Origin: Escherichia phage EI-SP-GF
DNA: 64,000 bases
Sequence record: OR992645.1
Strand: one strand, 5' to 3'
Shown: in pieces, positions 16,470 to 34,866 of the stretch
Layout: every line of letters starts with the position of its first letter
Position numbering within the stretch: the first letter of the stretch is position 1
Made by a program: the position numbers and the translations under genes
Notes under the pieces: model-generated
Databases searched by the model: none
What the model saw: the letters and a program-made list of their open reading frames with translations, nothing else
What the model was told of the DNA's origin: nothing

Positions 16470-17146
16470 TGGCAATAAACAGGAAAGATGCTGCTGTAAG
16501 ATCCTTTATAGAAAAAATAATGAGGGACTACCACACCAGTATTAGAGCCAGAGTTGTCAGTGTAGATTACAGTATCCCCTCTGCAGCCGTGCAGCCAATA
16601 GCCGAAACCATGTTTGACGATGGGGATGTAGAAAGGTACCCTCTTATCTATGATGTTCCAATCCAGGTGATGTCTGCAAACGGTGGGAAGGCAAGGTTAA
16701 CGCTTCCTATTAAAGCTGGTGATGTTGTAGGGCTGCAATTTTCAGAGAGAAATGAAAACAATAACGATGACCAGCAAACCCACGGCCTGTTTCCAGGATG
16801 GGCTATCACCTCTGTTCATTCAGACTCGAATGCTTTGCAGATCGATCCTGATAATGTAGAGTTATGGAATGATAGGGTTTATTTTAAGCTAACACCTTCT
16901 GGTGATTTTGAGCTTCAAACACCTGGTGGGACATTACGGTGCGACAGTAGCGGGGAGTTTTCTTTCACCAACGGGGCTGCCAATTTACGAGCTGCTGTGG
17001 ATGGAAATATCAGAATGAATGGTGCCACAATAGACCCATCAGGTAGAATTATAACGGCTGCTGGTGTGGATTTGGACTCATTCTATGCAGAATATAAAGG
17101 TCATACCCACTCTTGCCCTGATGGCGAGACAAGTGGACCGCACTAA
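16469..17146 (+). CDS. baseplate central spike protein (P2 gpV-like)
   Basis: 225 aa ending ...YKGHTHSCPDGETSGPH, resembling the His-containing apex motif (HTH..PGD.GGTTG.P) of gpV-type spikes. Confidence 0.65.
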   Translation: MAINRKDAAVRSFIEKIMRDYHTSIRARVVSVDYSIPSAAVQPIAETMFDDGDVERYPLIYDVPIQVMSANGGKARLTLPIKAGDVVGLQFSERNENNNDDQQTHGLFPGWAITSVHSDSNALQIDPDNVELWNDRVYFKLTPSGDFELQTPGGTLRCDSSGEFSFTNGAANLRAAVDGNIRMNGATIDPSGRIITAAGVDLDSFYAEYKGHTHSCPDGETSGPH

Positions 17147-17158
17147 TAGAGGGCTTGA

Positions 17159-17875
17159 ATGGCTACGCTTTATAGTGATATATTGATGGACCCACAGACA
17201 GGTGATTTGGCGATAGACAAAGGTCTTGAGTTGATAGATTCAAACCAAGTAAGTCTGCGCCAGCGCCTGTGGATGAGGTTTAATACATGGAAGGGGAGCT
17301 GGTACTTTGATGAGTTGTTTGGCTTCCCTTATATGGACTTTCTCAGTAAGAAGGTCATGAAGACTGTTCTTGATAACAAGATTATGGAAGTGGCAAGACA
17401 AGAGCCAGATGTGCTAAACATCATAAACTTCCAGTCTACTATGGATCGAAGATCGAGAACATACCAAGCGTTCTTTGAGGTTGTTACCAAGGAGAACGAG
17501 ATTGTAAGGCTGGCTTTCGTAGGTCTTGATCAGTTTACCTACCCACAGCCTGATGACGGGGCAACCTCTCTTTGTGATGATGAAGGTTGGATTAAGTGGG
17601 CTAATAAACTGTACTACCTGATCAACTTCAGATTGCCTAGAACTGGAGATGCTACGTGGTGGAACCAGTATGCTGGTCCTGAGATGGAAAACCCGATTCC
17701 TGTAGGTTCTCTGTTGACTCAGAATAAAGATCTGTTGATGACTGATGCAGAACAAACCATTAACCGCAATACCTGGACGCTTGCTCCAGATGAGCGCGAA
17801 TATTCTGGTGTTATTGCTACCTCTAATGATGAGGCTATTGCCAACCAGTCTGGTCGTGCTATCGATGTTAACTAA
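17159..17875 (+). CDS. baseplate wedge protein (gpW/gp25-like N-terminal domain)
   Basis: N-terminal region GDLAIDKGLELIDSNQVSLRQRLWMRFNTWKGSWYFDELFGFPY...EPDVLNI fits gpW/gp25 pattern. Confidence 0.5.
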   Translation: MATLYSDILMDPQTGDLAIDKGLELIDSNQVSLRQRLWMRFNTWKGSWYFDELFGFPYMDFLSKKVMKTVLDNKIMEVARQEPDVLNIINFQSTMDRRSRTYQAFFEVVTKENEIVRLAFVGLDQFTYPQPDDGATSLCDDEGWIKWANKLYYLINFRLPRTGDATWWNQYAGPEMENPIPVGSLLTQNKDLLMTDAEQTINRNTWTLAPDEREYSGVIATSNDEAIANQSGRAIDVN

Positions 17876-17884
17876 GGAGAAATC

Positions 17885-18553
17885 ATGGCTGTAGCTTATC
17901 CTACAATACCAATCCCAGATCTTGAAGATGCAGAAACAGTCTTGAGTGATGACTTCTTGGTTGTCAACCAGACTGACGGGACAAGAAAGGCTAAGATTGA
18001 TGATGTTGTCAATGATCTTAGCATTACTAAAATAGTTTATTTCACAGAGGGCGGTTATCTTAAGAGCAAGAAGGATTTTGCTTATGATCCGGAAACTAAG
18101 CGCTACTACACATGGAATGGAGATTATCCTAAAATAATCCTCCCAGATTCTACTGTAGAGGGTGCCGGAGGTGTGTCTGCAAAAGCATGGTCTGTTTTTG
18201 GAGAGCTTGCTGCAACTTCTTCAGGTAGGATAGTTGATTACGGCTCTATTGGTGGTCAACTTGACATGGATCTTGACGTTGCAGACACGTTTAAAGTTCG
18301 GCTCACTTCAAACACTACAATCTCTTTTGAAAATCAAACAGAAGGGCTCGACGGAGTGGCAAGAACTATAACTGTATGCATAACGCAGACCTCGGGTGGT
18401 AACAAAGTTTATTGGCCTGACAATGTTAAATGGGCCTACGGGAGAGATCCTATCCTAACATTTACAGCTGGTGCAACAGACATTTTCAAGTTGGAAACAT
18501 ATGATAATGGACTAACTTGGTACGGGGCACTGATCATCGCAGGAGCTATCTAA
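17885..18553 (+). CDS. tail fibre/tailspike N-terminal anchor-domain protein
   Basis: 222 aa; N-terminus (DDFLVVNQTDGTRKAKIDDVV...FTEGGYL...DFAYDPE) is paralogous to the N-terminus of the 1268-aa fibre at 21188. Confidence 0.55.
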   Translation: MAVAYPTIPIPDLEDAETVLSDDFLVVNQTDGTRKAKIDDVVNDLSITKIVYFTEGGYLKSKKDFAYDPETKRYYTWNGDYPKIILPDSTVEGAGGVSAKAWSVFGELAATSSGRIVDYGSIGGQLDMDLDVADTFKVRLTSNTTISFENQTEGLDGVARTITVCITQTSGGNKVYWPDNVKWAYGRDPILTFTAGATDIFKLETYDNGLTWYGALIIAGAI

Positions 18554-18554
18554 G

Positions 18555-21152
18555 ATGCGTATTCAACACAACATTGATAACGTATTTCAGATGATCGAGG
18601 GGCACAGGAAGTGCCTCGATAACAACACAGGTATTACCAATCTCCCTACACAGAACAAACTGGTAAACCAGGATGGACTTATAGCGTCAGGTTGGTCAGG
18701 AAGTAAGATAAATAATGATTGGGCAATGCATGAGTCCCAAGCCGTGTTGATTCTGGGATACATTGAGGCATACAGGGCATCAAAAAGCGATTTTTATCTA
18801 GACAGGGCCAAAGAGGCTTGGGAAGCCTACAACAGTCATCTTCTGGGAGTATATGCAGTAGAAAGTAAAATGCAAAGATTGTCCCACTACCCGTTATCCA
18901 CAGATGGAGTTCCATCACATGGTGGGTTTAAAGATGTGGTTGTGTCTTTTAACAAAGGTAGAGGAAAAATCCCAGCAGGATCCCCGACATGGGGAGAATA
19001 CTTGGACAAGGCTTTTCAGGCGTATAACGGTGTTTTAGGAAGAAACACTGTAGACTCTGATGTTTACGGCGGCACAGATGCTAATCCTAATTGGACAACT
19101 TCCGGATTAAGTTGGTGGGTTGAGTGGTATATAGCATGGGATGGTAACCGCTATTGGGCCAACGGTAGCATAGCCGACAGTGGTCATACGTCTGCAGAGT
19201 TCGGCACAATCCAACTGCAAGATAAGGGTGTTACAGGCAACCACAAGGTTACCTATTGTGTGAGATTGCCTAAAGAGCAGGGAGGATCGGTGATACCTGC
19301 TGGATCCCCTGTAATTGTAAATCCTATAAACGTGGTTGCAGACAATCAAGCCCCAGAGTTAGACGGGGAAGAGATGTGGTGTGACGCTTGTTATCAACTC
19401 TACACCTTGACAGGTGAGGAAAAGTATTACACCGCGTTTAAGCAGTCTTACAATAAGTTGCTTAATTTTAGTGATATAAATGCCTACGACAAGCTGTTCA
19501 GAAAGACCACGTTGATTAAGGCCCCGTTCACAGATGGCACTTGTCTAGTTGCAGGAACAGTACCTGTCATGAGTAGGGATAGTGACGGATATATCAATTT
19601 TAGAATGAACGCACGCCAGCCTTGCGAAATAATCCAAAAAGGGACTACATACAAAATAGGCAGAGATGCTGAAATTGTTATGAATTTCGGAGGAGAAGGG
19701 GTTCTGTTCCAGCCACATTTCATCCTTAATGATGGCAACAATAACAAAAAACAGTACAGAATAGGTGTACCTTTTGGAGGGGCAGAGGTAACAGAAACAG
19801 TTGCCAAGGTTACTGATTTTGTAGAGGTGGTTGGTAAAGACGGTAACCCGTATCTCTTGCCAAAAGAGGAAAACATTGCCGTAAGCGGTGGCGCTAGTGT
19901 TAGTATGCAGTATGATACCGACATTTACAACCACTCTGACAACTTCACCCGTTGCAACATAGTAAGAGGCAAGGTAACTTTCAATTTTGGAAGAGAGATT
20001 TCTTTAAACTCAGTGACTTATCGGTCAGATGATGAGATGGTAAGGGTCAAATTTCTTGACAAAGACCGTTGGTTATGGTATGCTGATCTATATGCTACTA
20101 ACGGGCAATGGATAACAGAAACTCTTACCCTGGGCGATTTTAAACTAGACCCAACACAACCTCATCACACAGAAGATGAGATTAAACCTTTCTTTGCTAA
20201 CCCTAAAGGAATTACCTCTGTAGATTTCAGTCTGAGCGACAGGCAGATAGGCAATGGCTTGTTCGATCTGTATTGCGTCAACACGCTGCCGCAATTTTAT
20301 GTTGCAGATAGGGATGCTTATCTGATCTGGTTTAGTGTATGGATGGCAAGCAAGACAGAATCAACCGCCAAGGTTGGTGATTGCTATGTCAGAAACTACA
20401 AGCAAGGAGCATACAGACACACTCCTGGTGTGTTCCCTGCTGGGAAGGTGATAGATAAGGAAAACTATCTCTTAGAGGAAAAGCCAAATTGGCCCTATCC
20501 TGGCATGCAATACCCAGCAGTCTACTGCATGGGTGCAGAAAACATAGATCGCCATAGATTGTCAAATACAATAGGCTTTCTGTACGACTCTCAAGTCTGG
20601 TATAATAATACATTTAAGACAGAGGGTCCAGTTGCCTCACGTTATGTATGGCAAAGAGGTAATGAAGGGTTGACTGGTTGGTGGGAGATGGTAGATAACT
20701 CTAAGCTCCAGTCAAGATCTTTTGTTGCTGCGTGCCGCACAATATATGAGCTCAAGAAACATAAAGAACCTGTTGATGAAAGACTGTTCCTGTTCTGCCA
20801 GAAATGGGCATGGTTCCTCAACAGATTCCAGTCATCTCATTCAGGAAATCTACCTACAGACTTTAACACCTCTGGAGGATACTCTTATCAGGACAGAGGA
20901 GACAGGATGTGGGTGGTAGGTGAATGGCTTGCAGGTTGCTGCTGGCTAGGTCTTTGCGGGTATTCAGAGACAATACCTCAAATAGATATTGTTGTAGAGG
21001 CCTGTATGAAGTTACTGCAAAAGCACCACTTCATTAACGGGGATAATGTTTTAAACGGCTGCTGGGCAGTTTCTGATCCGGTAGGCTATCACTCTGGCGA
21101 AATCCTTCGCGGTCTGGGACTTTATGCTCAATACCGTGGATTGTACCTTTAA
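18555..21152 (+). CDS. large tail-associated protein, putative carbohydrate-active enzyme (depolymerase candidate)
   Basis: 865-aa ORF starting 1 nt after the anchor-protein stop with AGGAGC RBS; Trp/Tyr-rich, no fibre repeats; enzymatic role is inference. Confidence 0.4.
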   Translation: MRIQHNIDNVFQMIEGHRKCLDNNTGITNLPTQNKLVNQDGLIASGWSGSKINNDWAMHESQAVLILGYIEAYRASKSDFYLDRAKEAWEAYNSHLLGVYAVESKMQRLSHYPLSTDGVPSHGGFKDVVVSFNKGRGKIPAGSPTWGEYLDKAFQAYNGVLGRNTVDSDVYGGTDANPNWTTSGLSWWVEWYIAWDGNRYWANGSIADSGHTSAEFGTIQLQDKGVTGNHKVTYCVRLPKEQGGSVIPAGSPVIVNPINVVADNQAPELDGEEMWCDACYQLYTLTGEEKYYTAFKQSYNKLLNFSDINAYDKLFRKTTLIKAPFTDGTCLVAGTVPVMSRDSDGYINFRMNARQPCEIIQKGTTYKIGRDAEIVMNFGGEGVLFQPHFILNDGNNNKKQYRIGVPFGGAEVTETVAKVTDFVEVVGKDGNPYLLPKEENIAVSGGASVSMQYDTDIYNHSDNFTRCNIVRGKVTFNFGREISLNSVTYRSDDEMVRVKFLDKDRWLWYADLYATNGQWITETLTLGDFKLDPTQPHHTEDEIKPFFANPKGITSVDFSLSDRQIGNGLFDLYCVNTLPQFYVADRDAYLIWFSVWMASKTESTAKVGDCYVRNYKQGAYRHTPGVFPAGKVIDKENYLLEEKPNWPYPGMQYPAVYCMGAENIDRHRLSNTIGFLYDSQVWYNNTFKTEGPVASRYVWQRGNEGLTGWWEMVDNSKLQSRSFVAACRTIYELKKHKEPVDERLFLFCQKWAWFLNRFQSSHSGNLPTDFNTSGGYSYQDRGDRMWVVGEWLAGCCWLGLCGYSETIPQIDIVVEACMKLLQKHHFINGDNVLNGCWAVSDPVGYHSGEILRGLGLYAQYRGLYL

Positions 21153-21187
21153 CATAGGGGGCTGTTTGCCCCCTTTCAGGAGAAAGA

Positions 21188-24100
21188 ATGGCTGATATTA
21201 AAGTTGTCAGAATTGAATCTCTTCCTGCCACTACCGCAGTGACAGAGGATGATTACCTGGTTGTTCAACAACCAGACCTGACCCGTCGTGTAAAAATTGG
21301 CGATGTTGTCCATGTGGATGGGACTGTTTCTCATGTAATCTCCTTTAAGGAAGGTGGTAAGTTAAACGGCCCAATGGATTTTGCCTACTTCGAAGAGGAA
21401 GATCTATACCTGCGTTGGAAAGGCGAATTTCCACACACTGTCCCTGCACTGTCTTCACCATATTCTGACGGTGGTATTACTGACGCTGCGTGGATGGTAT
21501 ATACAGATCCGTCCTTAAGGGAGGAGCTGGAGTCTACCATTGGCGCATCTATGATCATGACAGCCGAAGGGCAGTCTGTCCAAGATGTAATGGATGTTAC
21601 TGTTCAGACAGCCAACGATGCTAAAGCACTTGCACAGCGGGTAGATTTTGGCACAGTGCATACTGTAGGCGATGTTATTCACCTTGTCAACTTTGTTGGT
21701 CCTGCAGTTATTGAAGAGGGAAGAACTACTAACTACCCTTCTGAAGCGGCGGGTGAAAAATTTCTGAACGGTGTGGTATCTCGTCGTGATACTACAACTG
21801 TTGATGGCATTTTCCGTGGCGCTACCTCCGGAGCCATGTATACCATTGCAGTAACCAACGGTGTAGCAACAACAAAAAGAATAGCACTTCGTGACGAATT
21901 TAAACGCCTGGAGGCAAACAACCCAACAAGAACAGTTATCCGTGCCGGAGATGATTTAAACACAGCAGGGTACTTGCAGCTTGATGCAACAGGCCGTTGG
22001 GGTATGTGGAACCAACAAACAGCTTCGTGGCAACCTCTTGCTATAGAGCAAGGCGGCACAGGGGCCAGAGATGCCGCAGGTGCACGCATTAATTTAGGGG
22101 CTTTCTATAAGCAACGTGCAGCCCTTGAGTCAAATTTTAATATCAATAACTTGACTGGTAATCAGGATGGTATATACTACCAGCCGATGACTGCTTATGC
22201 AACTGAGGCAAATGGTTACCCTGCAGGTTCTGGTGCTGGTCACTTGATTGTCTGGCAGAACAATGCTAACGGCGGTACAGGTTGTCGTCAGGAATACTAT
22301 CCATTCTCTAACGTAGATGTTTGGTATTTGAGAACCTATCAGGCCAACACAAATCAGTGGACTGCATGGCAGCCAATGGTCAGACCCCGTAACGATGAGA
22401 CCTTTAGATCGCACATCGGTCTTGGGTCTAGGAATTCTCCTACCTTCGGGCACCTTTACCTGTCTCAAAGCTCGGCTGATGTTAAGTCGGCATCAGGTAT
22501 TGTTAACGGGGACAAATACAGCGCTGACGGTGTCCTTGAGCATGGGTATAGGATCTACTCTGAGGTAAGAAACGACAATAAGGCTTGGTTGACAATCCAC
22601 CTGCACAAAGGCGCAAAAGGATCTGAAACTCATAGATATTTAGGCTTCCGCGAGGATGGGGTCTTAGATTGTCCTAAATATATGCAGGTTGGTGATCTGA
22701 ACGGTCAGCTGGCAAACTGGGGACTTGGAGAATGGATCCGCAGTTCAGGAGCAGAAAGAGGTTTCTGGGGATCTAAGAAAGCCGCCAAGATGGTTATCTG
22801 GGATGGCGGTATGGACGAGCAAGGTGAAGGAACGCTTGAGTGGGGTGTTTATAACAACCGGAAAGCCAAATGGGAACCACTACCGATAGCTTGTGGTGGT
22901 ACCAGTGCCAGGACTGTAGGGGATGCTCAAGCACAATTCAGAATCCCTCTGGCATCAGGCGCTAGACCATATGTAAACCTGCCTAGAACTGCAGCTATGC
23001 AGGACGGTAAGTATTATCCTATTATCGTCAGAACTGACCCCAACTTTGCAGCAACTATCGGGACAGATTTAACCATTGTCACCAGATCTTCTTCTGGCGG
23101 CGACCCAATGAACTGTGCTACACTACAGTGTCACTACAGAACTGGTGGCTGGACAGACAGAGGTGATTCTTTCCAAGGGGTTATTAATTTCTACCAAAAC
23201 GAGAGAGCAATCCTCGGATGTGTATCTCCAACCAGAGGTAAGCAGGAGTATGTTGCATTCTATGTAGAGGCACGTGCATTCCCTGTTACAGTATATGCTG
23301 GCGCTACTGTAATAGAAGTGTCAACCAGGGAGGCTGATTGGCAAGTAGGCAACGTGACAGGTAACCAAGATGGTGTCAAGTTCTGTGCTCCTCTGGAATC
23401 TGCAGATTTGAGTCTTGCAATCAAAGGTGATGATGTAACAAACACCAGACCTCTGGTTGAGTTCAAAGGAACATCAGGTTTCTACACTGGTGGTGGAACT
23501 ATGTGGCACTACCTGGGGACTCCTGAACGCTATGCAGTGATGAGCAAAACGAACATGCCTAAAGTCGAGCTGTGGGCAGACGGTCTTGACTATTTGTGCT
23601 ACGGCGGTCCTAGAAAGGCATTATTCTCTAACGCGGGATTCCAGTGTGCATCTGACGGAACAGAGGATCTAACTAACGGCACGTTTACCTCTAAATGTGG
23701 TAATGGTGCTGGCCTTAAAGGCCAAGCAGAGTTCAGGTCTACTCCAGAAGCTGGTCAAGTTATTGTTCGAGATGTTGTGGGAACAGCTCATAGATTCTAC
23801 AACTTCAACAAAGATGGTACTTTCTCAGCCCCAGGTGGTTTTGTATGTCATACTGGTGGAGACTGGAACAACCAGTTCGGGCCTAATAACCCGTCAAAAA
23901 TAATGGCTGGCAACGTCAACGGACCAGAAGGTTCGATGGTTGTTGGTGGGTTGTCTGTGGCGTTTTCTGGAAACTATGCCTTCCAAATGGCTGGTCGCCT
24001 TGATCAGTTATACACCAGATCTATTGAGGGTGGTAACCACAGGGCGTGGAACAAAGTTATTCAGCACCGTGGTCAAGGTCTGGGGACAGAAGACCTTAAT

Positions 24101-24994
24101 GCCTACGATGGTAGCCGTGAAGGTTTCTATCACCAAGGTTCAAACGCTGACGCACTTGTAATAGATCGCCACTACCCTGCTCCGTACGCTGGTACACTGC
24201 TTGTTTACAAAAACACAGCTAACAGACCTCAAGGTTGTGTGCAGGAATATATCACCTATTTTGGTGACAGATATACTCGTGCTGGTAACTACGTTGGCGA
24301 TGTCTTTACTTGGGAAGAATGGAGACACGATGCTGGTAAAGGCATTCAGTTAAGACCTAATTACACTTTTGGTGAAACCAGTAATCAACTGGAAATTCAT
24401 GTCGGTGCTAATAGTCTTTCTAGCAACGCCGATAACTTACCTACCAATACAGGTAGAATGTTCTATTGGGGTAACGCAGACAGGAAGAACGTGCTTGAGT
24501 TTCAGGTAAACGACAACGCTGCATCTGCTAGCTGGGTATTCCACTGTGGCACTAGGTCAGACGAGGCTAAGTCAAGATATTTTGCTGTCAACGGTGTAGT
24601 AGAGTGCACCACTGTGAGCCAGAGCTCTGATAGAGACCTGAAGGACAATATAGAGGTTATTCCTAACGCGCTGGAAGCTATCCGTAAGATGAAGGGCTAT
24701 ACCTACACTTTAAAAGAGAATGGTATGCCTCACGCGGGGGTAATTGCTCAAGAGGTCATGGAAGCATTGCCAGAGGCAGTAGGGTCTTTCGTGAAAAGGA
24801 AGGAAATCCCAAACCCTGATCAAGATGGAACTCCTTTGATAACAGAAGAAAGGTTCTATAACGTTGACTACGCAGCTGTAACAGGCTTGCTTGTCCAGGT
24901 TTGCAGGGAACAGGACGATAAAATAACCGCCCTTGAGGAGCAGGTTAAAAAATTGACAGAGGTTGTTACTGGGTTGCAAGAGAAACTGAAGTAA
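21188..24994 (+). CDS. tail fibre/tailspike with C-terminal intramolecular chaperone (peptidase S74-like)
   Basis: 1268 aa; N-terminal anchor domain; GGTGARDAAGARINLG and GGTSARTVGD fibre motifs; C-terminus SDRDLKDNIEVIPNALEAIRKMKGYTYTL...GVIAQEVMEALPEAV matches S74 autoproteolytic chaperone signature. Confidence 0.75.
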   Translation: MADIKVVRIESLPATTAVTEDDYLVVQQPDLTRRVKIGDVVHVDGTVSHVISFKEGGKLNGPMDFAYFEEEDLYLRWKGEFPHTVPALSSPYSDGGITDAAWMVYTDPSLREELESTIGASMIMTAEGQSVQDVMDVTVQTANDAKALAQRVDFGTVHTVGDVIHLVNFVGPAVIEEGRTTNYPSEAAGEKFLNGVVSRRDTTTVDGIFRGATSGAMYTIAVTNGVATTKRIALRDEFKRLEANNPTRTVIRAGDDLNTAGYLQLDATGRWGMWNQQTASWQPLAIEQGGTGARDAAGARINLGAFYKQRAALESNFNINNLTGNQDGIYYQPMTAYATEANGYPAGSGAGHLIVWQNNANGGTGCRQEYYPFSNVDVWYLRTYQANTNQWTAWQPMVRPRNDETFRSHIGLGSRNSPTFGHLYLSQSSADVKSASGIVNGDKYSADGVLEHGYRIYSEVRNDNKAWLTIHLHKGAKGSETHRYLGFREDGVLDCPKYMQVGDLNGQLANWGLGEWIRSSGAERGFWGSKKAAKMVIWDGGMDEQGEGTLEWGVYNNRKAKWEPLPIACGGTSARTVGDAQAQFRIPLASGARPYVNLPRTAAMQDGKYYPIIVRTDPNFAATIGTDLTIVTRSSSGGDPMNCATLQCHYRTGGWTDRGDSFQGVINFYQNERAILGCVSPTRGKQEYVAFYVEARAFPVTVYAGATVIEVSTREADWQVGNVTGNQDGVKFCAPLESADLSLAIKGDDVTNTRPLVEFKGTSGFYTGGGTMWHYLGTPERYAVMSKTNMPKVELWADGLDYLCYGGPRKALFSNAGFQCASDGTEDLTNGTFTSKCGNGAGLKGQAEFRSTPEAGQVIVRDVVGTAHRFYNFNKDGTFSAPGGFVCHTGGDWNNQFGPNNPSKIMAGNVNGPEGSMVVGGLSVAFSGNYAFQMAGRLDQLYTRSIEGGNHRAWNKVIQHRGQGLGTEDLNAYDGSREGFYHQGSNADALVIDRHYPAPYAGTLLVYKNTANRPQGCVQEYITYFGDRYTRAGNYVGDVFTWEEWRHDAGKGIQLRPNYTFGETSNQLEIHVGANSLSSNADNLPTNTGRMFYWGNADRKNVLEFQVNDNAASASWVFHCGTRSDEAKSRYFAVNGVVECTTVSQSSDRDLKDNIEVIPNALEAIRKMKGYTYTLKENGMPHAGVIAQEVMEALPEAVGSFVKRKEIPNPDQDGTPLITEERFYNVDYAAVTGLLVQVCREQDDKITALEEQVKKLTEVVTGLQEKLK

Positions 24995-25001
24995 CTGTTT
25001 T

Positions 25002-25030
25002 GCCCTCGCTTCGGCGGGGGCTTTTTGTTT
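25002..25030 (+). terminator. rho-independent terminator (UUCG-loop hairpin)
   Basis: gccctcgc-ttcg-gcgggggc followed by tttttgttt. Confidence 0.7.
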
Positions 25031-25033
25031 GTA

Positions 25034-25062
25034 TTGCGTATTAACTCAAAATCTGGTAAAAT
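25034..25062 (+). promoter_or_regulatory. sigma70-like promoter TTGCGT-N17-TAAAAT with TGn
   Basis: ttgcgt 25034-25039, 17-nt spacer ending tgg, taaaat 25057-25062. Confidence 0.45.
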
Positions 25063-25093
25063 AACTATCATGATTGTTTAACCTGGAGGCACA

Positions 25094-25684
25094 ATGTTTT
25101 TATGGGAAAGGCCTAGATACCTTCCAGATATTAGATTGGAGCTGCTGGCAGATATTGTTACGTTTAAAAGTCCGTTTACAGGTAAAACGCAAAAAGTGAC
25201 CTATGCCACACCTAACTGGAAAGGCACTTTGACGGTTTCCAATATCAGCGAGTCACAGTTGCTAGAGCTTAAGAGCTTTGTTGATCAGGTGTATAAAGAC
25301 GGGAACATTTTTCTTATTAAAACGTACGGTCACTCAGTAACAGCTAATGAGCCAATCGCCCTTGGGCCTACCGGTAACGACGATTTTTTGAAGACGGTCG
25401 GATGGGAGCCAAACAGAGACATAGCCAGAGCTGGGGATAAAATATCTGTTAACGATGAATTGAAAGTGGTAACAGCTCCAGTGCGCAGCGATGGTGTTGG
25501 GTCTGCTGTTATAAGCATATCTCCAAGACTTAGAAAACCTATTGCCGCAGGGGACACTATGAAGATAATAACTCAATCCCCAAAGGGTAGGTTTCATATC
25601 AGAGATATTTATAAAATTAAGCAAAAAGTCGATGCTATGCAAAAAGGTGATAATATAGTTATCAACTTCTTTGAGGATTTCTAA
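25094..25684 (+). CDS. tail tip assembly protein (lambda gpM / GTA g12 position, tentative)
   Basis: 196-aa ORF with GGAGG RBS, first gene of a four-gene run ending in the lambda J-like protein. Confidence 0.4.
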   Translation: MFLWERPRYLPDIRLELLADIVTFKSPFTGKTQKVTYATPNWKGTLTVSNISESQLLELKSFVDQVYKDGNIFLIKTYGHSVTANEPIALGPTGNDDFLKTVGWEPNRDIARAGDKISVNDELKVVTAPVRSDGVGSAVISISPRLRKPIAAGDTMKIITQSPKGRFHIRDIYKIKQKVDAMQKGDNIVINFFEDF

Positions 25685-25685
25685 G

Positions 25686-26237
25686 ATGATTAGAGCGCCA
25701 TTAGATAATTTATTTCTTGAAAAGCTGGAGCTTGATAGTGTTGAGATCTTAATTGCTGCAAAGCTAGAGCTACCAACAGGGACTGTCAGGGTGTGCTCAG
25801 GAACTGGTGTTGTGGTGATTGAGGGGCAACATTTTATAGGGATAGGTGGATCAGCAACATTGACTGCTGTGTCTGAGAAAGATGCTACCAACTTCGGATC
25901 TGTGGTAGCAACATTGAACGGATTTGATCCCAAGTATGTAGGTGATCTGCTGAAGACAGAGTATTCGGGTTGTCGTGCCACGTTGTATATCACAGCTATG
26001 GAGAATGGTTTACCTGTTACAACCAATGGCTTGTTTGACGGCCTTATAACAGACATGGCTATTCAGACAGGGGAGAATAGTGCTTTGTCCATATCCATAT
26101 CTTCCATCTTCAACAGCTGGTTAAGAGGTTTTCCTTATCGATACACAGAGGAGAGCCATAGCTCAAGAAACGATAATGACAGATTTTTTAAATATGTGGA
26201 TCAGGTGGCAAGCCGCCCGATCATTTGGGAGGTTTAA
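25686..26237 (+). CDS. tail tip protein (lambda gpL / GTA g13 position, tentative)
   Basis: ORF frame opens 25671; ATG 25686 follows upstream stop; position-based call. Confidence 0.4.
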   Translation: MIRAPLDNLFLEKLELDSVEILIAAKLELPTGTVRVCSGTGVVVIEGQHFIGIGGSATLTAVSEKDATNFGSVVATLNGFDPKYVGDLLKTEYSGCRATLYITAMENGLPVTTNGLFDGLITDMAIQTGENSALSISISSIFNSWLRGFPYRYTEESHSSRNDNDRFFKYVDQVASRPIIWEV

Positions 26238-26662
26238 TGAGCACACACCCTCGTTTAGTAGACTGGCAAGAAAGATTGTGGAAAGTGTTTGACGAAGAAG
26301 CTACCGTCCAGTTTGAATGGGGATTCCACGATTGTTGCACTTTTGCGGCTAAATGTGTTGATGCCCAATATGGAACAGATTTTCTTTCTAACTTTGAAGG
26401 AACGTATAAAACAGAGTTGGAAAGCAAGAGATGGTGCATGCTCCGTTTCAAAACCACCCACCTGCCTACTATTTTTGATCTCTTTTTGACTCGACTGGAT
26501 ACTCCTAAACAGGTTCAGCGTGGCGATATTGTTATTTTCGAAGGTCTGAACGGGCTCACCGCTGGTGTGTTCTGGAACAACCAGATTTGGGCGAAAGGTG
26601 ATAAGGGGATCTTTATGTTCGACATGAAAGATTCTATCGTTGTTGATGTCTGGAGGTATTAA
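26237..26662 (+). CDS. NlpC/P60-like tail tip protein (lambda gpK C-domain / GTA g14-like)
   Basis: EWGFHDCCTFAAKCV (Cys-containing motif) and RGDIVIFEG; catalytic His not evident; located directly upstream of J-like gene. Confidence 0.4.
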   Translation: MSTHPRLVDWQERLWKVFDEEATVQFEWGFHDCCTFAAKCVDAQYGTDFLSNFEGTYKTELESKRWCMLRFKTTHLPTIFDLFLTRLDTPKQVQRGDIVIFEGLNGLTAGVFWNNQIWAKGDKGIFMFDMKDSIVVDVWRY

Positions 26663-29600
26663 TGCCAATTGCAATGATTGATAACATCGTTGCTTCTGCA
26701 AGATCTTCGAGCTATGACTGGAACGCATCCAAGGCAGCTCTGGCTGACAGCCTGAACACTGTTACCACCAGAACCCTGGATAAGATTTTCGAAGGTAACA
26801 AATCTTACAGAAGTCAGCAAGATAGACAAAAGCTTCTCAGATCTTCTGCTGCACCTTGCTCTGTAGTGTATGGGAAGACACGCACATCTGGATTGCTTGC
26901 GTTTTTGGAGCAGGACAGGGACAGAACCCTTCATTGTGCTATTGTTCTTGCCAATCATCCCTTGGAAGGTATAGAAGATATACTTATCGACGGTAATCCT
27001 ATTTCCTCGTATGGGGATTTGGTATCGTGGGAGTTACATAACGACAGGAAAACCTCTGATCCTTTCATGGGTACACACTGCCCTTCGTGGTCACCAGACA
27101 TGATAGGTAGAGGGATCAGTTGGCTACGTGCCAGCTTTAAGTTTGACCCTAACAAGTTTCCTTTTGGGTTGCCAAACGTTACACTCGTCAAGGTTGGTAA
27201 AAAATGTTATGATCCTCGTATCAGTAAAGAGGTGTATACCAATAACGCTGCCTTGGTGATTCTGGACTACCTAAGAACGTACCTTAAATGTCCTGACGAA
27301 ACCATCAACTGGGAGTCCTTCAAGGAAGCTGCCAACATATGCGATGAGGCTGTAAAAAACGCGGACGGAACCAGTGAGCGCCGTTACACCATTAATGGCG
27401 AGTTCGACATGGATGAAGCACCAGCAAGCATTATGGCAGAGATGCTGAAAGCTTGTGGTGCAGACCTTAGCTATGTAGCTGGCAAATATGGTCTGCTGGT
27501 AGGTGCATACTATGGCCCGGCAACAATGACACTTAGCGAGAACTGTGTTTGCGGTGAGGTTAAGATCTATCCTGAAGCCTCCTTCGACAAAAGATCCAAC
27601 ACAATAACTGGCAGATTCACTAGTCCGGCCAAAGGGTATTCTGAAACAGATTTTCCATCAGTGTTTGTCCCAGAGTGGGTAGAGAAGGATGGAGAAAGAA
27701 AGATAATCGATATAGATTATCGCTTTGTTACCAGTCCTTATCAAGCTCAGCGTGTTTCTGCAATCTTCTTAAGACGTGCCAGAGCTGGTAGGATTATTGA
27801 AGTAACCTGCAATATGCGGGGTTTTAAATTTAAGCCTGGGCGTTACGTTACGATGGACCTCCCAAGTATTGGTATAGTGGGCCAAGAAATGAGGGTTCTT
27901 GAATGGGAGTTCACCAAAAAGGGCGGTGTCAAGGTAAAACTCCGTCAAGATGCTAAAGAGTGGAATGATGCCACAGGGCAACTTCCGGATTCTGGAGATG
28001 TGGATATTCCGATATCCCCGTCCGGCGTAGCTCAACCGCAAAACTTCAGATACTCTGTTCTTCAAGCTGGGGAAGTAACTCATGGTGTTTTGGCTTGGGA
28101 CAACGTTGGAACTTATGCTCAAAATATTGTGCAGGTAAGAAAGAACGGAGAGATTATTTGGACAGCACAGACAGTTGAGCAGTTTGTCCGCGTAGAAGGA
28201 TTGACCAAAGGGTCATACACAGCAACCGTGGTTGCAACATCTTATAAAGGTGGTGTATCTCCAGAAGCTTACTGCGAGTTTAACATTCAAGCACCTGAAG
28301 CTCCTGTTTCTGTAGAAGTTAAGCAGGGATACTTTGCTATCACCTTGATTCCGCACAGCAGGGACTTAGCAAGTGTAAGCACCCAGTATGATTTTTGGAC
28401 ATCTGGTATGACAAGGTTGCCGGACACAAGTGATGCAACCGTTACTTCAAAAGCCACCCGTATGGGTGTTGGTTCAACTTGGACATCTGAAGGTCTGCAG
28501 AACGATAAGATTTATTATTGGTATATTCGAACCACAAACGCTTTTGGTAGTTCTCAGTTTGTAGAATGCGCTGCACGCTGCTACACCTCTATTGAAGATT
28601 TGATGCCTCAGATAGATGCTGAATTTAAAAAGACAGAAACTTATAAAGAGTTGATGAGCACTTTAGATTCCTCTATCGAGGAGGTTGAAAATCGTGTCAC
28701 AGAGCTTAACAAGTACATGGACGGAAGGGTAGATGAGGCATTCCAACAACTTGGAGATAGGATAGGTGCGGTAGTTGCAGAGACAACTCAGAAGTTTGAG
28801 GATGTCAATGGTAATATCACAGCTCTGGATAGGAAACTTGTTGCTGCACAGAACAAGTTCACCAACGATCTGAACACTGAAAGTGGAAGACTGGCATCCC
28901 TGATCGAGACAACCAATAAAGCAACCACTGATCTTCTGAACAAAAAGACAGAGGCTTTAGACGAGAAATTGGTTGCAGCCAAAGGGGAGTTGGTAGAACA
29001 AATAAGTGGTGTGGAGAGCGGATACCTTGCCGGAGATAAAACTCTAGATGGCAAGATCAATACCCAGAGAACGGAACTTGATGCAAGCATCTTAAGCACC
29101 AACCAGGCGACAGTGGATCTTCTCAACAGGACATCTGAAACTTTGGATCAAAAGATCAGTCAGACAAACGCGACGGTATCTAAGAACTATACCACCCTTG
29201 ATGGTAAGATAACTACCGCAAAAACTGATCTCAATACCTTGATTGCCAATACCAACAAGGCCACCACAGATTTGTTGAATCAGAAAACCTCTGCACTGTC
29301 GGAGCAGATAACTTCTGCACGTGGAGAAATTTCTACCAACAAACAGGCGATTAAGGATTTGGATGGTAAGCTGACCTCCACAAAAACAGCACTGGACGCT
29401 ACAATCTCCGATACCAACAAAGCAACCGTGGATCTTATTAACGGCACAGCGTCAGCTATTCGTCAAGAACTTGCTGTTGCTAAGCAGGAGATCATTGATG
29501 ATGTCGGTGATGTGTCAGAGCTTAGAGCTGCAGTAGCTACAACATCTAAGGCTGTGACAGACTTAGAGGGCAAAGTAACTGCTCAATGGGGCACAAAAAT

Positions 29601-30501
29601 ACAGGTAGACTCCGCAGGGAATAAGTATGTGGCAGGTATCCAATTGGGCATGGAAGGCTCTGGAGGCCAAGTTCAATCATACTTCATGGTTAGTGCAAAC
29701 AACTTTGCGGTATACAACCCCGGAAATGGAACAGCAACCCTTGCTTTCGCAATCAAGAACAACCAAGCATTCTTGAAAGATGCTTTTATAGAGAACGGGA
29801 CGATCTCTTCTGCCAAGATTGCACAAGAAATTTCGTCTAACAACTACGATGGCAACGGGTACCATAAATACGGTTGGTATATTAACAAGAACGGACACGC
29901 CCAGTTTATGGATGTGTGGGTGAAAGGTAACATCAACGCTAGTGCAGGTAACTTCACAGGGGCAGTTAACGCTACCAGTGGCACTTTCCGTGGGGATGTT
30001 TATGCCAATAATGGTAGCTTTAGAGGCACCATAGATGCAACAGGAGGTACATTCCGTGGACGTGTAGAAGCTTCCGTTATCCGTGCTAACCAGTTCGAAG
30101 GTGCAATCGTTGCACATAGGACCTATGGTGACTGTCCTCCGGTATATAACTCGCAGCAGAGGGTTTGCCGTTGGAGGTGGAGATATGTGGACAACGTTTC
30201 AGGGCAAGGTAAGAACGTAACATTCTTCTTTAAACTAAACGGAACCTTGTCTGGCTCCCAGCTCAACGTTTGGATAGCCGGACATCAAATCCTTGCAGGT
30301 AAGAAGTACGGAAACGACAACAACGGCATGTGTGCGGTAGGGATAACTGGTCTCGGTGAACAAACCATAGACATTATCGTCGAGATATACACACCATGGT
30401 CAACGTCAAGCGTGACAGGAGTTACAATATCTTGTCCAACCGTAATAGTTAGTCGTTCAAACTCTAGCTTCCAGGGACCTTGGAACGAGTCTCATGACTA
30501 A
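26662..30501 (+). CDS. lambda gpJ-like host specificity / central tail fibre protein
   Basis: 1279 aa; FN3-region motifs PEAPVSVEVKQGYFAITLIPH...FW...YYWYIRTTNAFGSSQFVE and VQSYFMVSANNFAVYNPGNG...NNQAFLKDAFI closely parallel lambda J ([21 protein letters not shown]...YYFYIRSVNTVGKSAFVE; LSQFLVAANRIAFIDPANG). Confidence 0.8.
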   Translation: MPIAMIDNIVASARSSSYDWNASKAALADSLNTVTTRTLDKIFEGNKSYRSQQDRQKLLRSSAAPCSVVYGKTRTSGLLAFLEQDRDRTLHCAIVLANHPLEGIEDILIDGNPISSYGDLVSWELHNDRKTSDPFMGTHCPSWSPDMIGRGISWLRASFKFDPNKFPFGLPNVTLVKVGKKCYDPRISKEVYTNNAALVILDYLRTYLKCPDETINWESFKEAANICDEAVKNADGTSERRYTINGEFDMDEAPASIMAEMLKACGADLSYVAGKYGLLVGAYYGPATMTLSENCVCGEVKIYPEASFDKRSNTITGRFTSPAKGYSETDFPSVFVPEWVEKDGERKIIDIDYRFVTSPYQAQRVSAIFLRRARAGRIIEVTCNMRGFKFKPGRYVTMDLPSIGIVGQEMRVLEWEFTKKGGVKVKLRQDAKEWNDATGQLPDSGDVDIPISPSGVAQPQNFRYSVLQAGEVTHGVLAWDNVGTYAQNIVQVRKNGEIIWTAQTVEQFVRVEGLTKGSYTATVVATSYKGGVSPEAYCEFNIQAPEAPVSVEVKQGYFAITLIPHSRDLASVSTQYDFWTSGMTRLPDTSDATVTSKATRMGVGSTWTSEGLQNDKIYYWYIRTTNAFGSSQFVECAARCYTSIEDLMPQIDAEFKKTETYKELMSTLDSSIEEVENRVTELNKYMDGRVDEAFQQLGDRIGAVVAETTQKFEDVNGNITALDRKLVAAQNKFTNDLNTESGRLASLIETTNKATTDLLNKKTEALDEKLVAAKGELVEQISGVESGYLAGDKTLDGKINTQRTELDASILSTNQATVDLLNRTSETLDQKISQTNATVSKNYTTLDGKITTAKTDLNTLIANTNKATTDLLNQKTSALSEQITSARGEISTNKQAIKDLDGKLTSTKTALDATISDTNKATVDLINGTASAIRQELAVAKQEIIDDVGDVSELRAAVATTSKAVTDLEGKVTAQWGTKIQVDSAGNKYVAGIQLGMEGSGGQVQSYFMVSANNFAVYNPGNGTATLAFAIKNNQAFLKDAFIENGTISSAKIAQEISSNNYDGNGYHKYGWYINKNGHAQFMDVWVKGNINASAGNFTGAVNATSGTFRGDVYANNGSFRGTIDATGGTFRGRVEASVIRANQFEGAIVAHRTYGDCPPVYNSQQRVCRWRWRYVDNVSGQGKNVTFFFKLNGTLSGSQLNVWIAGHQILAGKKYGNDNNGMCAVGITGLGEQTIDIIVEIYTPWSTSSVTGVTISCPTVIVSRSNSSFQGPWNESHD
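28860..29480 (+). repeat. in-frame tandem repeat region encoding repeated T-x-NKATTDLLN-x-KT/ TLDGKI coiled-coil units inside the J-like gene
   Basis: protein segments TNKATTDLLNKKTEALDEK / TNQATVDLLNRTSETLDQK / TNKATTDLLNQKTSALSEQ / TNKATVDLINGTASAIRQE recur about every 40 aa. Confidence 0.5.
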
Positions 30502-32107: not shown

Positions 32108-32794
32108 ATGGCAGAGATTAAGTCGGATGTCAACCACATCCACACTCTGCCAGATTTTGTTCAGGGAGGTCTTGATTACCTGCCTGGAGATTTTCTGGCT
32201 GAGAAGGTTAATTTAGTCACATTCTTAACCGTGTACCTTAAAAGGTTGGAGGATGTTGATAAAATGCTGGTAGGCTTGGCTGAAGGAAGATTGCTTAACA
32301 ATGCCAGCGGGAGATACCTTGACGAAGTTGGTAATCAACTCGGTATTCTTCGGAATGGGCTTTCAGATGCGGATTTTCGTGCTACCCTGGTTATTCAGCA
32401 AGCAGCAGCATCAAGGGGTGGGACTCGCGAAGATGTCATCTCCACCTTGCGACAATTGTTCGGAAGAGACAATTTCGATACGTGGAAAGGTGACAATTTC
32501 AGGTTTGACATAAACATTAGAAAAACTTGCTTTGACATATTGCAGTCTATCGACCAGATCTTAGATATGCTGCCATTGCCTTGTCATTTGCGTCTTACGG
32601 AGTCGCAAGGGCAAGCTTTTGGTTTTGAAGGGGACTCTACAGCTCTCGGCTTCGGATCAGTGTGGGAAGAAAACCAGTTCGGGGTTGGTGGGCTGGCTAC
32701 TTTGTTATATGTTCCTGACGTAAGACCTGATTGGGATACCACAACTATTTATTGTGAAAGTATTACAGTAAACGCAACTAGACAGGAGGGTTAA
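32108..32794 (+). CDS. baseplate wedge protein (P2 gpI-like, tentative)
   Basis: 228-aa ORF immediately after baseplate J-like gene. Confidence 0.4.
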   Translation: MAEIKSDVNHIHTLPDFVQGGLDYLPGDFLAEKVNLVTFLTVYLKRLEDVDKMLVGLAEGRLLNNASGRYLDEVGNQLGILRNGLSDADFRATLVIQQAAASRGGTREDVISTLRQLFGRDNFDTWKGDNFRFDINIRKTCFDILQSIDQILDMLPLPCHLRLTESQGQAFGFEGDSTALGFGSVWEENQFGVGGLATLLYVPDVRPDWDTTTIYCESITVNATRQEG

Positions 32795-34866
32795 TGGCAA
32801 CAGCTGTTTTTAAACCTTACCGTGATTACTCTACAATGGCTGCACGGTTTCATTACCGCACAGTTCAGGATACTGCAGTTCCGGGTAGGGATTATGATCA
32901 TGTTGAGGGCGATGTAACTATCCCGGTTGGGGCAACCAGTATTGAGATCCCTGTAGAAATTGTTGACAAATTGCCAAACAGGTTGCCAAGAAGCTTCTTT
33001 ATGGAGTTTTCATCAAACTCCCAAGGGGTTATGATTGGAACACAAAGAGCGAAATGTACAATAGTTTCAGATGAGAATCTTGACAGAATATCTTGGGATA
33101 CCGTTGAGGAGAGAATGTTTCACCCAAGATACTGGGTTACAACCACACAGCAGACTGAAAGCACCTGTATTGTTGCGGATAATAACTGCTGTATTAACCG
33201 TTTAGTGTCAAGAACATATGGGGGCATGGCTGGGTGCATTTGGGAAACAGTTGACAAGTATGACCATTTCGGCATTGGATTTGATGATCACTACGAGATG
33301 AGAAACACCAAGCTTTGGTTCAGAATGTCAATAACCAATGCCAGCAACTTCTCCACCCCTGAAAAGATGATTATGACTGTAGACCTTGTTGATGGTACAA
33401 TCATCTATGTTCCTTTAGCTCAATATGCTGTCAGCATCTCAGAGGATAAGAATGTTGCAGAAATTCATATTGATTTCGAGGACTGCGTCGGGATGGACCA
33501 GAACAACAACATGATGGGTGTTGATCCTCGGCAGGTGAGAAGGATTCTAATACCACTTATGCCTAAAGATTGGGTAGGTAATAGCACAGACCCGAGAACG
33601 GAAAATGTAGAGTGTGAGTTGCGTCTAGATCTTCTTCAGCCGGACACAGGCTGGAAAATGATGCAACTTAACAATATTCAGGTGAAAGAACACGATGTTG
33701 GGATCTGCACAGCATATGACGATATGTGGAACGTATCCCCTTTAAGGGTGTTGAGCAATATCAAGCGTCTGGGCTATACAGGAACCATAAACCATTATGT
33801 TGGTATGAGCCATTATTATGACTACACATGGTCAGGAACCCAATGGTCTATAAACAAAACAGGAGCTCTAAACGCTGCAGCTTATAAATGGCATGATGAT
33901 TTTATGTACAATGCCAAACGACATGACTTCGACGTTATGCAGTCTGTAAGCTTTGAGCTTTATAGCGATGCCTGTCCGTTGGAATGGACCCAGAGAGACT
34001 GGAACGATAACTATGCTAAAACAGGCTATACGCCTTGTAGTTACCTCCTGTCTCCAACCATTGAAGAGGGCATGAATTTCCTTACTGCAGTATTTAAGAA
34101 TTTTGCATCAGCCGCTATGAGAAACAACCTGCCAGTGATTATGCAGATTGGTGAACCGTGGTGGTGGTTCAATACCGATACTCGTAAGCCTTGTATTTAT
34201 GACTACCCTACAAAGCAGGCGTTTTATGATGAGACTGGTGAATATGCACTAGACATTGGGACTATTGACGATCCTAAAACTGGCGGTGTTTATGACAAGT
34301 ATGTAGCATTTTGTCGTGGTAAGCTTGGCGCTCGTATTGCAGCCATTTCAAAGGCAATAAAAGCACACGCTGCATCGGCTCAGATGACAGCTTTACTGTT
34401 TTTCCCCACTATTATGGAAACCGAGCTTACGCAAAAACTGAACCTTGCTGACCAATATAAAAAGGAAGCAGGTGCTCTTGATTTCTTCTGCACTGAGTGC
34501 TACGATTGGGTGATGCAGGGAGGTATTGAAAAGGCAAAAGAGTCTGTAAACATACCTATCGTTAAGTTAGGTTGGAAACCGTCTGAAATACAATACCTTG
34601 CAGGGTTCGTTCCTAGCAAAGAGCTTGCTCCGGTATATGGCTACGACCCAACCAGGAATTACCAAGAATTTTTATGGAGATGTATTTGCGGAAACATGGC
34701 AACCATAGAGTATAGATACCCTGAGGTAAAACAGTATGTGTGGGCATACCCGCAAGTAATGTCTGACAGCATCACTGTTACCGCCAGAGATTCTACTGTT
34801 CTGCATATGGGGCAGGTTGCTCTGAAAGGGTATGTAGAAGATGTTGTTCCGCCAGACTTCTCATAA
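32794..34866 (+). CDS. tail-associated protein with N-terminal Calx-beta-like domain and large C-terminal domain (possible glycoside hydrolase / TIM-barrel)
   Basis: N-terminus VPGRDYDHVEGDVTIPVGATSIEIPVEIVD resembles Calx-beta motif; C-terminal region Trp-rich (GEPWWWF); enzymatic role is inference. Confidence 0.45.
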   Translation: MATAVFKPYRDYSTMAARFHYRTVQDTAVPGRDYDHVEGDVTIPVGATSIEIPVEIVDKLPNRLPRSFFMEFSSNSQGVMIGTQRAKCTIVSDENLDRISWDTVEERMFHPRYWVTTTQQTESTCIVADNNCCINRLVSRTYGGMAGCIWETVDKYDHFGIGFDDHYEMRNTKLWFRMSITNASNFSTPEKMIMTVDLVDGTIIYVPLAQYAVSISEDKNVAEIHIDFEDCVGMDQNNNMMGVDPRQVRRILIPLMPKDWVGNSTDPRTENVECELRLDLLQPDTGWKMMQLNNIQVKEHDVGICTAYDDMWNVSPLRVLSNIKRLGYTGTINHYVGMSHYYDYTWSGTQWSINKTGALNAAAYKWHDDFMYNAKRHDFDVMQSVSFELYSDACPLEWTQRDWNDNYAKTGYTPCSYLLSPTIEEGMNFLTAVFKNFASAAMRNNLPVIMQIGEPWWWFNTDTRKPCIYDYPTKQAFYDETGEYALDIGTIDDPKTGGVYDKYVAFCRGKLGARIAAISKAIKAHAASAQMTALLFFPTIMETELTQKLNLADQYKKEAGALDFFCTECYDWVMQGGIEKAKESVNIPIVKLGWKPSEIQYLAGFVPSKELAPVYGYDPTRNYQEFLWRCICGNMATIEYRYPEVKQYVWAYPQVMSDSITVTARDSTVLHMGQVALKGYVEDVVPPDFS

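Follow-up and report, generated by a model that had tools for sequence, protein, structure and literature searches.

A docking-domain adaptor and a glycosidase-like protein as a candidate two-component receptor-recognition module of rV5-like phages

Results

Here, we analyzed a 64,000-nucleotide (nt) stretch of DNA from Escherichia phage EI-SP-GF (sequence record OR992645.1; hereafter the window), focusing on two adjacent tail genes at positions 17,885 to 21,152 that encode a protein of 222 amino acids (aa) and, immediately downstream, a protein of 865 aa. The pair probably forms a two-component tail receptor-recognition module, in which the anchored 222-aa adaptor holds an (alpha/alpha)6 protein of 865 aa that binds, and probably processes, glycans. 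In the proposed mechanism, a 45-aa N-terminal peptide and a Tail_spike_N domain would fix the adaptor to the baseplate or fibre network, as in the neighbouring 1268-aa fibre, and the C-terminal ~100 aa of the adaptor (hereafter the docking domain) would hold the 865-aa protein. Translation of the latter would be coupled to that of the adaptor and would begin at a separate start codon, one base past the adaptor stop. Its six-hairpin barrel, with carboxylates at helix starts (E60, D270/E272/D277 and E849), together with a beta-sandwich insertion resembling a carbohydrate-binding module (CBM), would be the working part, and the protein would most likely bind, and probably cleave or modify, a conserved host surface glycan. 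The data show the three ORFs (open reading frames), the anchor common to adaptor and fibre, the fold class (from a model of moderate confidence), the rV5 orthologues in virions and a strict pairing of the two genes under swapped anchors; physical docking, stoichiometry, catalysis and substrate are the elements of this model that we infer.

A first-pass annotation of this DNA, made from the sequence alone, had read the two genes either as a receptor-binding protein split into an adaptor and a separately translated enzyme-like module, or as the product of a recent fission of one tailspike gene. The first of these readings is supported by gene co-occurrence, by the predicted fold and by the presence of orthologues in virions; the second did not survive, as the split is conserved in distant lineages.

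Pairing of the docking domain and the large protein across phages

We sampled loci from two metagenome contigs, a Burkholderia prophage, Salmonella BP63, Yersinia ISAO8, phAPEC8, Erwinia Asesino, a Kolesnikvirus, Vibrio D506 and Serratia PCH45. A small Hidden Markov Model (HMM) of the docking domain of the small protein matched the extreme C-terminus of the gene just upstream of the large-protein homologue in 10 of the 11 scored loci, with E values at the sampled loci ranging from 6e-25 to 4e-49; the exception was Serratia phage PCH45, whose upstream gene lacks the domain. Four further loci, from phi92, phage 7-11, Atoyac14 and PJNS034, showed the same arrangement. A large-protein homologue directly follows the docking domain in 13 sampled GenBank and metagenome loci. 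Junction gaps at the sampled loci ranged from -8 to +12 nt, and the two genes overlap by 35 nt in phage 7-11. Searches by tblastn with the docking domain alone and with the large protein each returned 524 phage records, and the host-genus counts were nearly identical.

An IMG/VR scan seeded solely on the most conserved motif of the docking domain yielded 80 loci, 79 of which had downstream sequence. In all 79 informative loci, a large-protein homologue starts 1–55 nt past the docking-domain stop, and an in-frame fusion of the two was found in none (0/79). The upstream proteins formed 16 clusters, with roughly a dozen N-terminal architectures that show no apparent relationship. [quoted passage not shown] A constant C-terminal domain and a constant downstream partner combined with a changing anchor constitute the pattern expected of a docking domain for a separately made cargo. 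Judged from sequence, the docking domain and the large protein stay side by side and are never parted, even between very distant phages, and their pairing is ancient and widespread.

The two products could instead be independent tail components that happen to be adjacent in a late operon, the small one serving as a short fibre or knob and the large one attaching elsewhere. Adjacent phage structural genes often make products without contact, and the co-divergence signal of the two proteins is weak (see Discussion). However, adjacency was kept in 79/79 informative loci and in every morphotype sampled while the N-termini and the neighbourhood changed completely. Moreover, the truncated fibre of ISAO8 and Atoyac14 has neither shaft nor tip, so the stretch examined in these phages would have no receptor-binding part without the large protein. 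Independence of the two components appears very improbable on these grounds.

Some unusual forms were also observed. In two IMG/VR loci (L034 and L069), the large-protein homologue matches solely as a short fragment of an open reading frame (ORF), which may reflect pseudogenes or sequencing frameshifts. In a 293-aa metagenome protein (P0066), the usual order is inverted: ~194 residues from the start of a large-protein homologue come first, and a docking domain (HMM E = 3e-20) comes after them. Recombination or a chimeric assembly may explain this protein.

Architecture of the adaptor

The 222 residues of the small protein are fully covered by the anchor peptide, Tail_spike_N and the docking domain (Table 1). 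Tail_spike_N (PF18668, gathering cut-off 25) scored 40.4 bits in the 222-aa protein and 40.7 bits in the 1268-aa protein. An anchor-peptide HMM built from eight such N-termini matched only these two ORFs in the window (E = 2.6e-20 and 1.1e-20, respectively). The common N-terminal anchor proposed in the first-pass annotation was thereby confirmed, with residues 8–105 of the small protein and 7–105 of the fibre being 38% identical (E = 2e-18). The 865-aa protein, likewise as proposed, is devoid of the anchor, having no Tail_spike_N domain and no match to the anchor-peptide HMM. Because anchor domains (Tail_spike_N here, PF03906 in ISAO8 and Atoyac14) lie on the upstream protein and none lies on the separately encoded cargo, the pair appears to follow the adaptor-plus-cargo arrangement of the SP6 gp37 type.

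The docking domain occurs once in the window by HMM. Several PHROG "tail fiber" families that are otherwise unlike one another match it at their C-termini; no match was found in Pfam or NCBIfam, nor between its profile and PDB sequences. The whole 222-aa protein matched phrog_7760, "tail fiber protein" (E = 2.6e-118), and its matches among PDB sequences were confined to N-terminal tailspike domains (9occ_G, 8x8m and CBA120 TSP3/TSP4). The N-terminus of its rV5 orthologue, gp43, has been noted to resemble that of the P22 tailspike (PMC3606486).

In phage phi92, residues 44–157 of gp140 are 41% identical to aa 109–222 of the 222-aa protein (E = 1.5e-28). A peptide related to the anchor stands at the N-termini of both gp140 and the endosialidase gp143 of phi92, which share 39% identity over 38 residues of it; this common peptide is compatible with both proteins sitting on the same kind of attachment site. 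The 222-aa protein is labelled "sialidase domain protein" in BASEL, a label that we could not support, as no sialidase match was found in Pfam, NCBIfam or PDB sequences. The only sialidase link found was the anchor peptide itself, which is common to the 1268-aa fibre, phi92 gp140 and the N-terminus of endosialidase gp143.

Gene junction

The junction sequence places the start of the 865-aa gene 1 nt past the 222-aa stop and its Shine-Dalgarno sequence, AGGAG, inside the 222-aa gene (Table 1), in line with the first-pass annotation, which had described this spacing and an own ribosome-binding site (RBS) within the anchor gene. The AGGAG sits 9 nt before the ATG, a correct placement for ordinary initiation, and the 1-nt junction may permit translational coupling that would favour balanced synthesis of both proteins.

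Alternatively, so tight a junction might mark a recent fission of a single tailspike gene, or a site of programmed frameshifting into one 1088-aa protein. The gap is 1 nt, and 2 nt separate AGGAG from the last sense codon, an arrangement that recalls the prfB +1 frameshift site. In addition, five members of the large-protein family (PCH45, L013 3158-7156; P0026; P0032; P0035; P0065) carry a ~280-aa N-terminal extension in one polypeptide, the end of which is weakly docking-domain-like; this likeness is too weak to claim (HMM E = 0.003–0.06; hhalign P = 0.003, probability 10.7%). The split, however, is kept between lineages whose large proteins are only 24–35% identical, and recent fission is rejected for this reason; moreover, the fused form is absent from all 79 informative IMG/VR loci. 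Relative frames and gaps vary by lineage (-35, -8, -4, -1, 0, +1 and +12 nt), so there is no conserved recoding signal. A programmed +1 frameshift at AUC-UAA-G is rejected because of this differing junction geometry; furthermore, a shift from AUC to UCU would not re-pair the tRNA, and AGGAG is well placed for ordinary initiation. We regard fission or frameshifting as extremely improbable.

A KWPENIQW motif within the ~280-aa extension echoes WPxNVKW of the docking domain, a similarity that is statistically insignificant.

Predicted fold of the large protein

The 865-aa protein matched phrog_2871 with 1170.7 bits, and single-sequence searches of Pfam, NCBIfam and PDB sequences returned no match. 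An exhaustive search of 1.84 billion proteins, clustered at 50%, gave about 90 representatives of the large-protein family; word-index searches returned fewer relatives, 6–7 for the large protein and 4 for the small one. We modelled the 865-aa protein with AlphaFold2 from an 8-sequence alignment (mean predicted local distance difference test score (pLDDT) 66; predicted template-modelling score (pTM) 0.55). The model has eleven long helices (within 2–22, 59–96, 269–306 and 663–860), with beta-rich segments between them at 100–268 and 330–613. The first-pass annotation had named a structural, non-enzymatic fold as a finding that would speak against its reading; the predicted fold is an (alpha/alpha)6 barrel of the glycosidase/epimerase type, with no structural fibre fold.

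Profile searches agree with this assignment. A family profile of 29 members matched, among PDB sequences, the helix-hairpin motif of a glycoside hydrolase (GH) family 76 mannanase (E = 1.4e-4) and cellobiose 2-epimerases, and these matches fall on the N-terminal barrel part (aa 1–96). Individual family members gave sub-threshold Pfam matches to GH76, GH127, GH47, C5-epimerase and CIA30; GH76 was sub-threshold in 3 of the 29 relatives, with P0003 scoring 16.8 bits against a cut-off of 25.9. Foldseek matches of the beta insertion included NDUFAF1/CIA30 (template-modelling score 0.43 over the target) and CBM-bearing enzymes. The polar residues conserved in the 29 members include E60, Q62, D270, E272, D277, R341, Y489, D502, Q680, W699, R721 and E849, and the carboxylates E60, D270, E272, D277 and E849 lie at helix starts in the model. 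Conserved carboxylates in this position, combined with the hairpin and barrel matches, make the predicted fold enzyme-like. By its modelled (alpha/alpha)6 barrel, the protein is a predicted member of the six-hairpin glycosidase superfamily; a particular GH family, mechanism or substrate could not be assigned to it.

Within the same two-protein complex, the (alpha/alpha)6 protein could still act as a non-catalytic, lectin-like receptor binder or as a structural cap. Helix N-termini are the usual position of catalytic residues in (alpha/alpha)6 barrels, and E60, D270, E272, D277 and E849 are kept in 86–97% of the 29 members, which are only 23–56% identical to the window protein; moreover, the 865-aa protein is 97% conserved within the genus, as expected for a fixed glycan target. 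This evidence favours an active glycan-processing protein, and a purely binding or capping role, though it retains appreciable weight, seems rather unlikely.

We also considered the 865-aa protein as a classical tailspike depolymerase and rejected this assignment: it has no anchor of its own, and its modelled body consists of an alpha-helical barrel and beta-sandwiches. Without a beta-helix, it is no tailspike in the classical sense.

The CBM-like module is mobile. It also ends a separate 502-aa tail protein, as in a Kolesnikvirus-like phage (L004 5749-7257), P0078 and Erwinia phage MM7 (G0YPM2). In the Kolesnikvirus-like loci L004 (5749-7257) and L011 (2909-4417), the gene for the 502-aa protein lies two genes upstream of that for the large protein. 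Such a phage thus has the module twice, in the 502-aa protein and in the middle of the large protein (aa ~482–580).

Presence of the rV5 orthologues in virions

A gene in this place would also suit a chaperone or scaffold that assists assembly of the adaptor or fibre and has no functional part in the virion: fibre chaperones are typically encoded just downstream of the fibre gene, and no solved structure places the 865-aa protein. Yet rV5 gp42 was found by virion proteomics, and family members range from 860 to 1800 aa, far above known fibre chaperones. They also bear CBM-like and, in P0007, Laminin_G_3 additions, which are typical of receptor binders. A chaperone or scaffold role is thus highly improbable. 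Absence of the large protein from virions was a further finding that the first-pass annotation would have counted against its reading; in rV5, gp42 and gp43, along with gp41, were detected in virions by mass spectrometry (PMC3606486).

Comparison with known systems

The products of rV5 genes gp43, gp42 and gp41 (gp043/gp042/gp041; 222, 865 and 1272 aa) are direct orthologues of the three window proteins, in the same order and with the same 1-nt gap between the first two genes. Compared with the same genes in rV5, Murica, ECP32 and the BASEL Vequintaviruses, nucleotide identity of the window genes is 90–98% and the 865-aa protein is 97–99.8% identical. Published accounts of the rV5-type genes go no further than the labels "tail protein", "tail fiber protein" or "glycosidase domains", and the two products are not presented there as a complex. 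Independent annotations agree with the glycosidase-like reading, with "contains six-hairpin glycosidase-like domain" in Murica and "lateral tail fiber protein with glycosidase domains" in Bas59; the large protein of Atoyac14 is annotated as a "glycosidase superfamily protein".

Phage phi92 encodes an orthologous pair, gp140 (157 aa) and gp141 (958 aa), in which the stop of the first gene overlaps the start of the second. Over its full length, gp141 is 35% identical to the 865-aa protein, and gp140 is 41% identical over the docking domain. Unlike the window adaptor, gp140 lacks Tail_spike_N and consists of anchor peptide and docking domain only, and it has the anchor peptide in common with the gp143 endosialidase rather than with a long fibre. 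A review table of receptor-binding proteins that draws on Schwarzer et al. 2012 enters phi92 gp141 as a predicted "glycosidase" (PMC5380687). A 2026 cryo-electron microscopy (cryo-EM) study of phi92 never mentions gp141 and leaves fibre II without an assigned protein (PMC13450770). For Bas49 and Bas54, cryo-EM located three of the nine fibres annotated and left one density unfitted (PMC12143355).

Several better-known attachment systems resemble the pair in part. In CBA120 and G7C, each branched tailspike protein runs on into its own beta-helix or esterase receptor-binding domain. Tail_spike_N, which is named after CBA120 TSP1 and G7C gp66, occurs in the adaptor and in the 1268-aa fibre, linking both to the branched tailspikes of CBA120 (TSP1-4) and G7C (gp66/gp63.1); unlike in those phages, Tail_spike_N of the 222-aa protein is followed by the docking domain only. 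SP6, K1-5 and K1E have as cargo a trimeric spike, built as a beta-helix or beta-propeller, that brings a small docking part at its own N-terminus. The cargo here differs in being a predicted (alpha/alpha)6 barrel without a recognizable docking extension, the docking element being instead a dedicated ~100-aa domain of the adaptor. In concept, the gp37-type adaptor of SP6, K1-5 and K1E is likewise a small attachment protein holding a separately translated enzymatic receptor-binding protein (PMC9145550). It also resembles the ISAO8 and Atoyac14 adaptors in beginning with a T7 gp17 N-terminal domain; between the SP6-type system and the present pair, no sequence relationship is detectable.

The gp38 adhesin of the T2/T6/S16 type, at the tip of the long-fibre protein gp37, is a separate polypeptide encoded just downstream of this carrier; it comprises ~260 aa, is non-enzymatic and has an unrelated fold. 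Its likeness to the 865-aa protein would be functional only. Finally, six-hairpin (alpha/alpha)6 enzymes (GH8, GH48, GH76, GH88, GH105 and the AGE family) are 8–14% identical in sequence to the 865-aa protein. In contrast to these enzymes, its barrel is split by two large beta insertions, and no family-specific catalytic motif is assignable.

Discussion

Several points weigh against reading the pair as an adaptor and its docked, catalytic cargo. The model of the 865-aa protein is only moderately confident (pTM 0.55; pLDDT below 50 at 228 residues), and the protein itself reaches no Pfam GH threshold. An AlphaFold2 model of the 222-aa protein, built from four close sequences, was unusable (pLDDT 30). 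Of the 38 polar or aromatic positions that are at least 85% conserved in the 29 family members, the Vequintavirus protein deviates from the consensus at 10 (residues 45, 97, 99, 103, 249, 250, 274, 651, 703 and 715; for example, W274M, Y651M, W715N, R249A and D703N), which may reflect altered specificity or a partly degenerate site. In a mirror-tree test, the docking domain and its partner co-diverge only weakly (Mantel r = 0.43, p = 0.026; no significance by Spearman). Literature searches on family members returned annotations only, with no report of pair binding, enzymatic activity or substrate, and neither protein was placed in the cryo-EM structures of phi92 (PMC13450770) or of two Vequintaviruses (PMC12143355).

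Little is new about the genes or the glycosidase-like prediction, both of which GenBank and earlier publications already contain. The strict association of docking domain and cargo across many anchor types appears in no paper searchable here. The rV5-like phages rank among the broad-host-range coliphages isolated most often, and the BASEL paper calls the assignment of genes to lateral appendages in these phages "far from clear". The pair of docking domain and large protein offers a testable candidate for the unassigned baseplate density of rV5-like and phi92-like phages and, if docking is true, a possible handle for swapping receptor-binding cargo between phages.

A bolder generalization is conceivable, which we put forward as speculative and on balance doubtful. 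The docking domain and the (alpha/alpha)6 protein might together be a portable two-component cassette, mounted on a dozen or so virion anchors of no apparent relationship, in phages of the myo-, podo- and jumbo types and in prophages. It might be the only receptor-binding device of some T7-like Melnykvirinae, and might account for baseplate density that cryo-EM left unassigned (fibre II of phi92, or the unfitted density of Bas49 and Bas54), with the enzyme acting on a glycan common to Enterobacterales, Vibrio, Aeromonas and Burkholderia.

Genomic context and other features of the window

The coordinates and lengths of all three ORFs agree with those in the first-pass annotation (Table 1). A megablast search with window positions 17000-25100 matched 123 phage records, 115 of which covered at least 80% of the region; the top match was Escherichia phage vB_EcoM-ECP32 (97.9% identity, 100% query coverage), and Murica was 94.3% identical. 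All matched records were Vequintavirus or other rV5-like myoviruses. These similarities place the window in a Vequintavirus, an rV5-like coliphage, with the gene pair inside the baseplate/lateral-fibre cluster. Upstream, the genes run in the order tape measure, tube initiator, plug, hub, spike and sheath-initiator-like protein, which matches rV5, Murica and Bas59 and, more distantly, phi92. The position of the gp43/gp42 genes between the sheath-initiator-like gene and the long fibre gene is identical in rV5, Murica and Bas59. About 20 records named "Campylobacter phage" (e.g., MG065646.1, MG065647.1 and MG065690.1; host Campylobacter jejuni) are 91–98% identical to the window region, and their host label looks doubtful.

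Table 1 Positions of the gene pair, its predicted parts and flanking elements in the window
Feature	Position	Strand	Basis
222-aa adaptor protein (putative), rV5 gp43 orthologue (phi92 counterpart gp140)	17885..18553	+	ORF list
N-terminal anchor peptide, aa 1-45	17885..18019	+	anchor HMM
Tail_spike_N domain, aa 51-104	18035..18196	+	Pfam PF18668
C-terminal putative docking domain, aa 121-222 (~100 aa)	18245..18550	+	domain HMM, tblastn, IMG/VR
Candidate coupling junction: AGGAG 18541-18545, TAA 18551-18553, G 18554, ATG 18555-18557	18541..18557	+	sequence
865-aa virion protein, rV5 gp42 orthologue (phi92 counterpart gp141), predicted (alpha/alpha)6-barrel core	18555..21152	+	
Predicted barrel helices, N-terminal part, aa 1-96, with conserved E60, Q62	18555..18842	+	model helices 2-22, 59-76, 79-96
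First predicted beta-rich insertion, aa 100-268, low confidence	18852..19358	+	model strands; pLDDT mostly <50
Predicted barrel helix hairpin, aa 269-306, with conserved D270, E272, D277	19359..19472	+	helices 269-286, 289-306, pLDDT 84-93
Predicted large beta-sandwich insertion, aa 330-613	19542..20393	+	model, pLDDT about 70-90
Mobile CBM/CIA30-like module, about aa 482-580	19998-20294	+	phrog_23426 match
Predicted barrel helices, C-terminal part, aa 663-865, with conserved N671, D678, Q680, W699, R721, E849	20541..21149	+	six long model helices
GC-rich hairpin GGGGGC-tgttt-GCCCCC followed by TTT, between the 865-aa gene and the RBS of the fibre gene	21157..21173	+	sequence
1268-aa lateral fibre, rV5 gp41 orthologue (1272 aa in rV5)	21188..24994	+	ORF list
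Anchor of the 1268-aa fibre in common with the adaptor, first ~105 aa	21188-21502	+	
Peptidase_S74 chaperone domain of the 1268-aa fibre, aa 1147-1198	24626-24781	+	

The RBS of the 1268-aa fibre gene (AGGAG, 21178-21182) lies directly beside the GC-rich hairpin that follows the 865-aa gene. A hairpin at the equivalent place in phage Murica is annotated as a terminator; a terminator scan of the window did not call the hairpin at 21157-21173, because its T run is short. The 21157-21182 region may act as a leaky terminator or as a translational control element.

Downstream of the fibre gene, positions 25094-30501 hold a siphovirus-type tail-tip set inside the myovirus baseplate cluster, comprising proteins of 196 and 188 aa, a DUF6950 protein (26225-26662) and a lambda-J-like protein of 1279 aa that has both Ig_J and Phage_Tail_Tip domains. 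The rV5 counterparts of this set are gp40-gp37, which bear the annotations PY54-like "distal tail protein" and "central tail fiber J". Further downstream, positions 32794-34866 encode a 690-aa protein with a TIM-barrel domain of the N4 gp65-type non-contractile sheath (PF23845, E = 6.7e-80) and a Calx-beta domain. Its equivalent in phi92 is the gp142-type fibre, linked in a 2026 preprint to NGR polysaccharide recognition.

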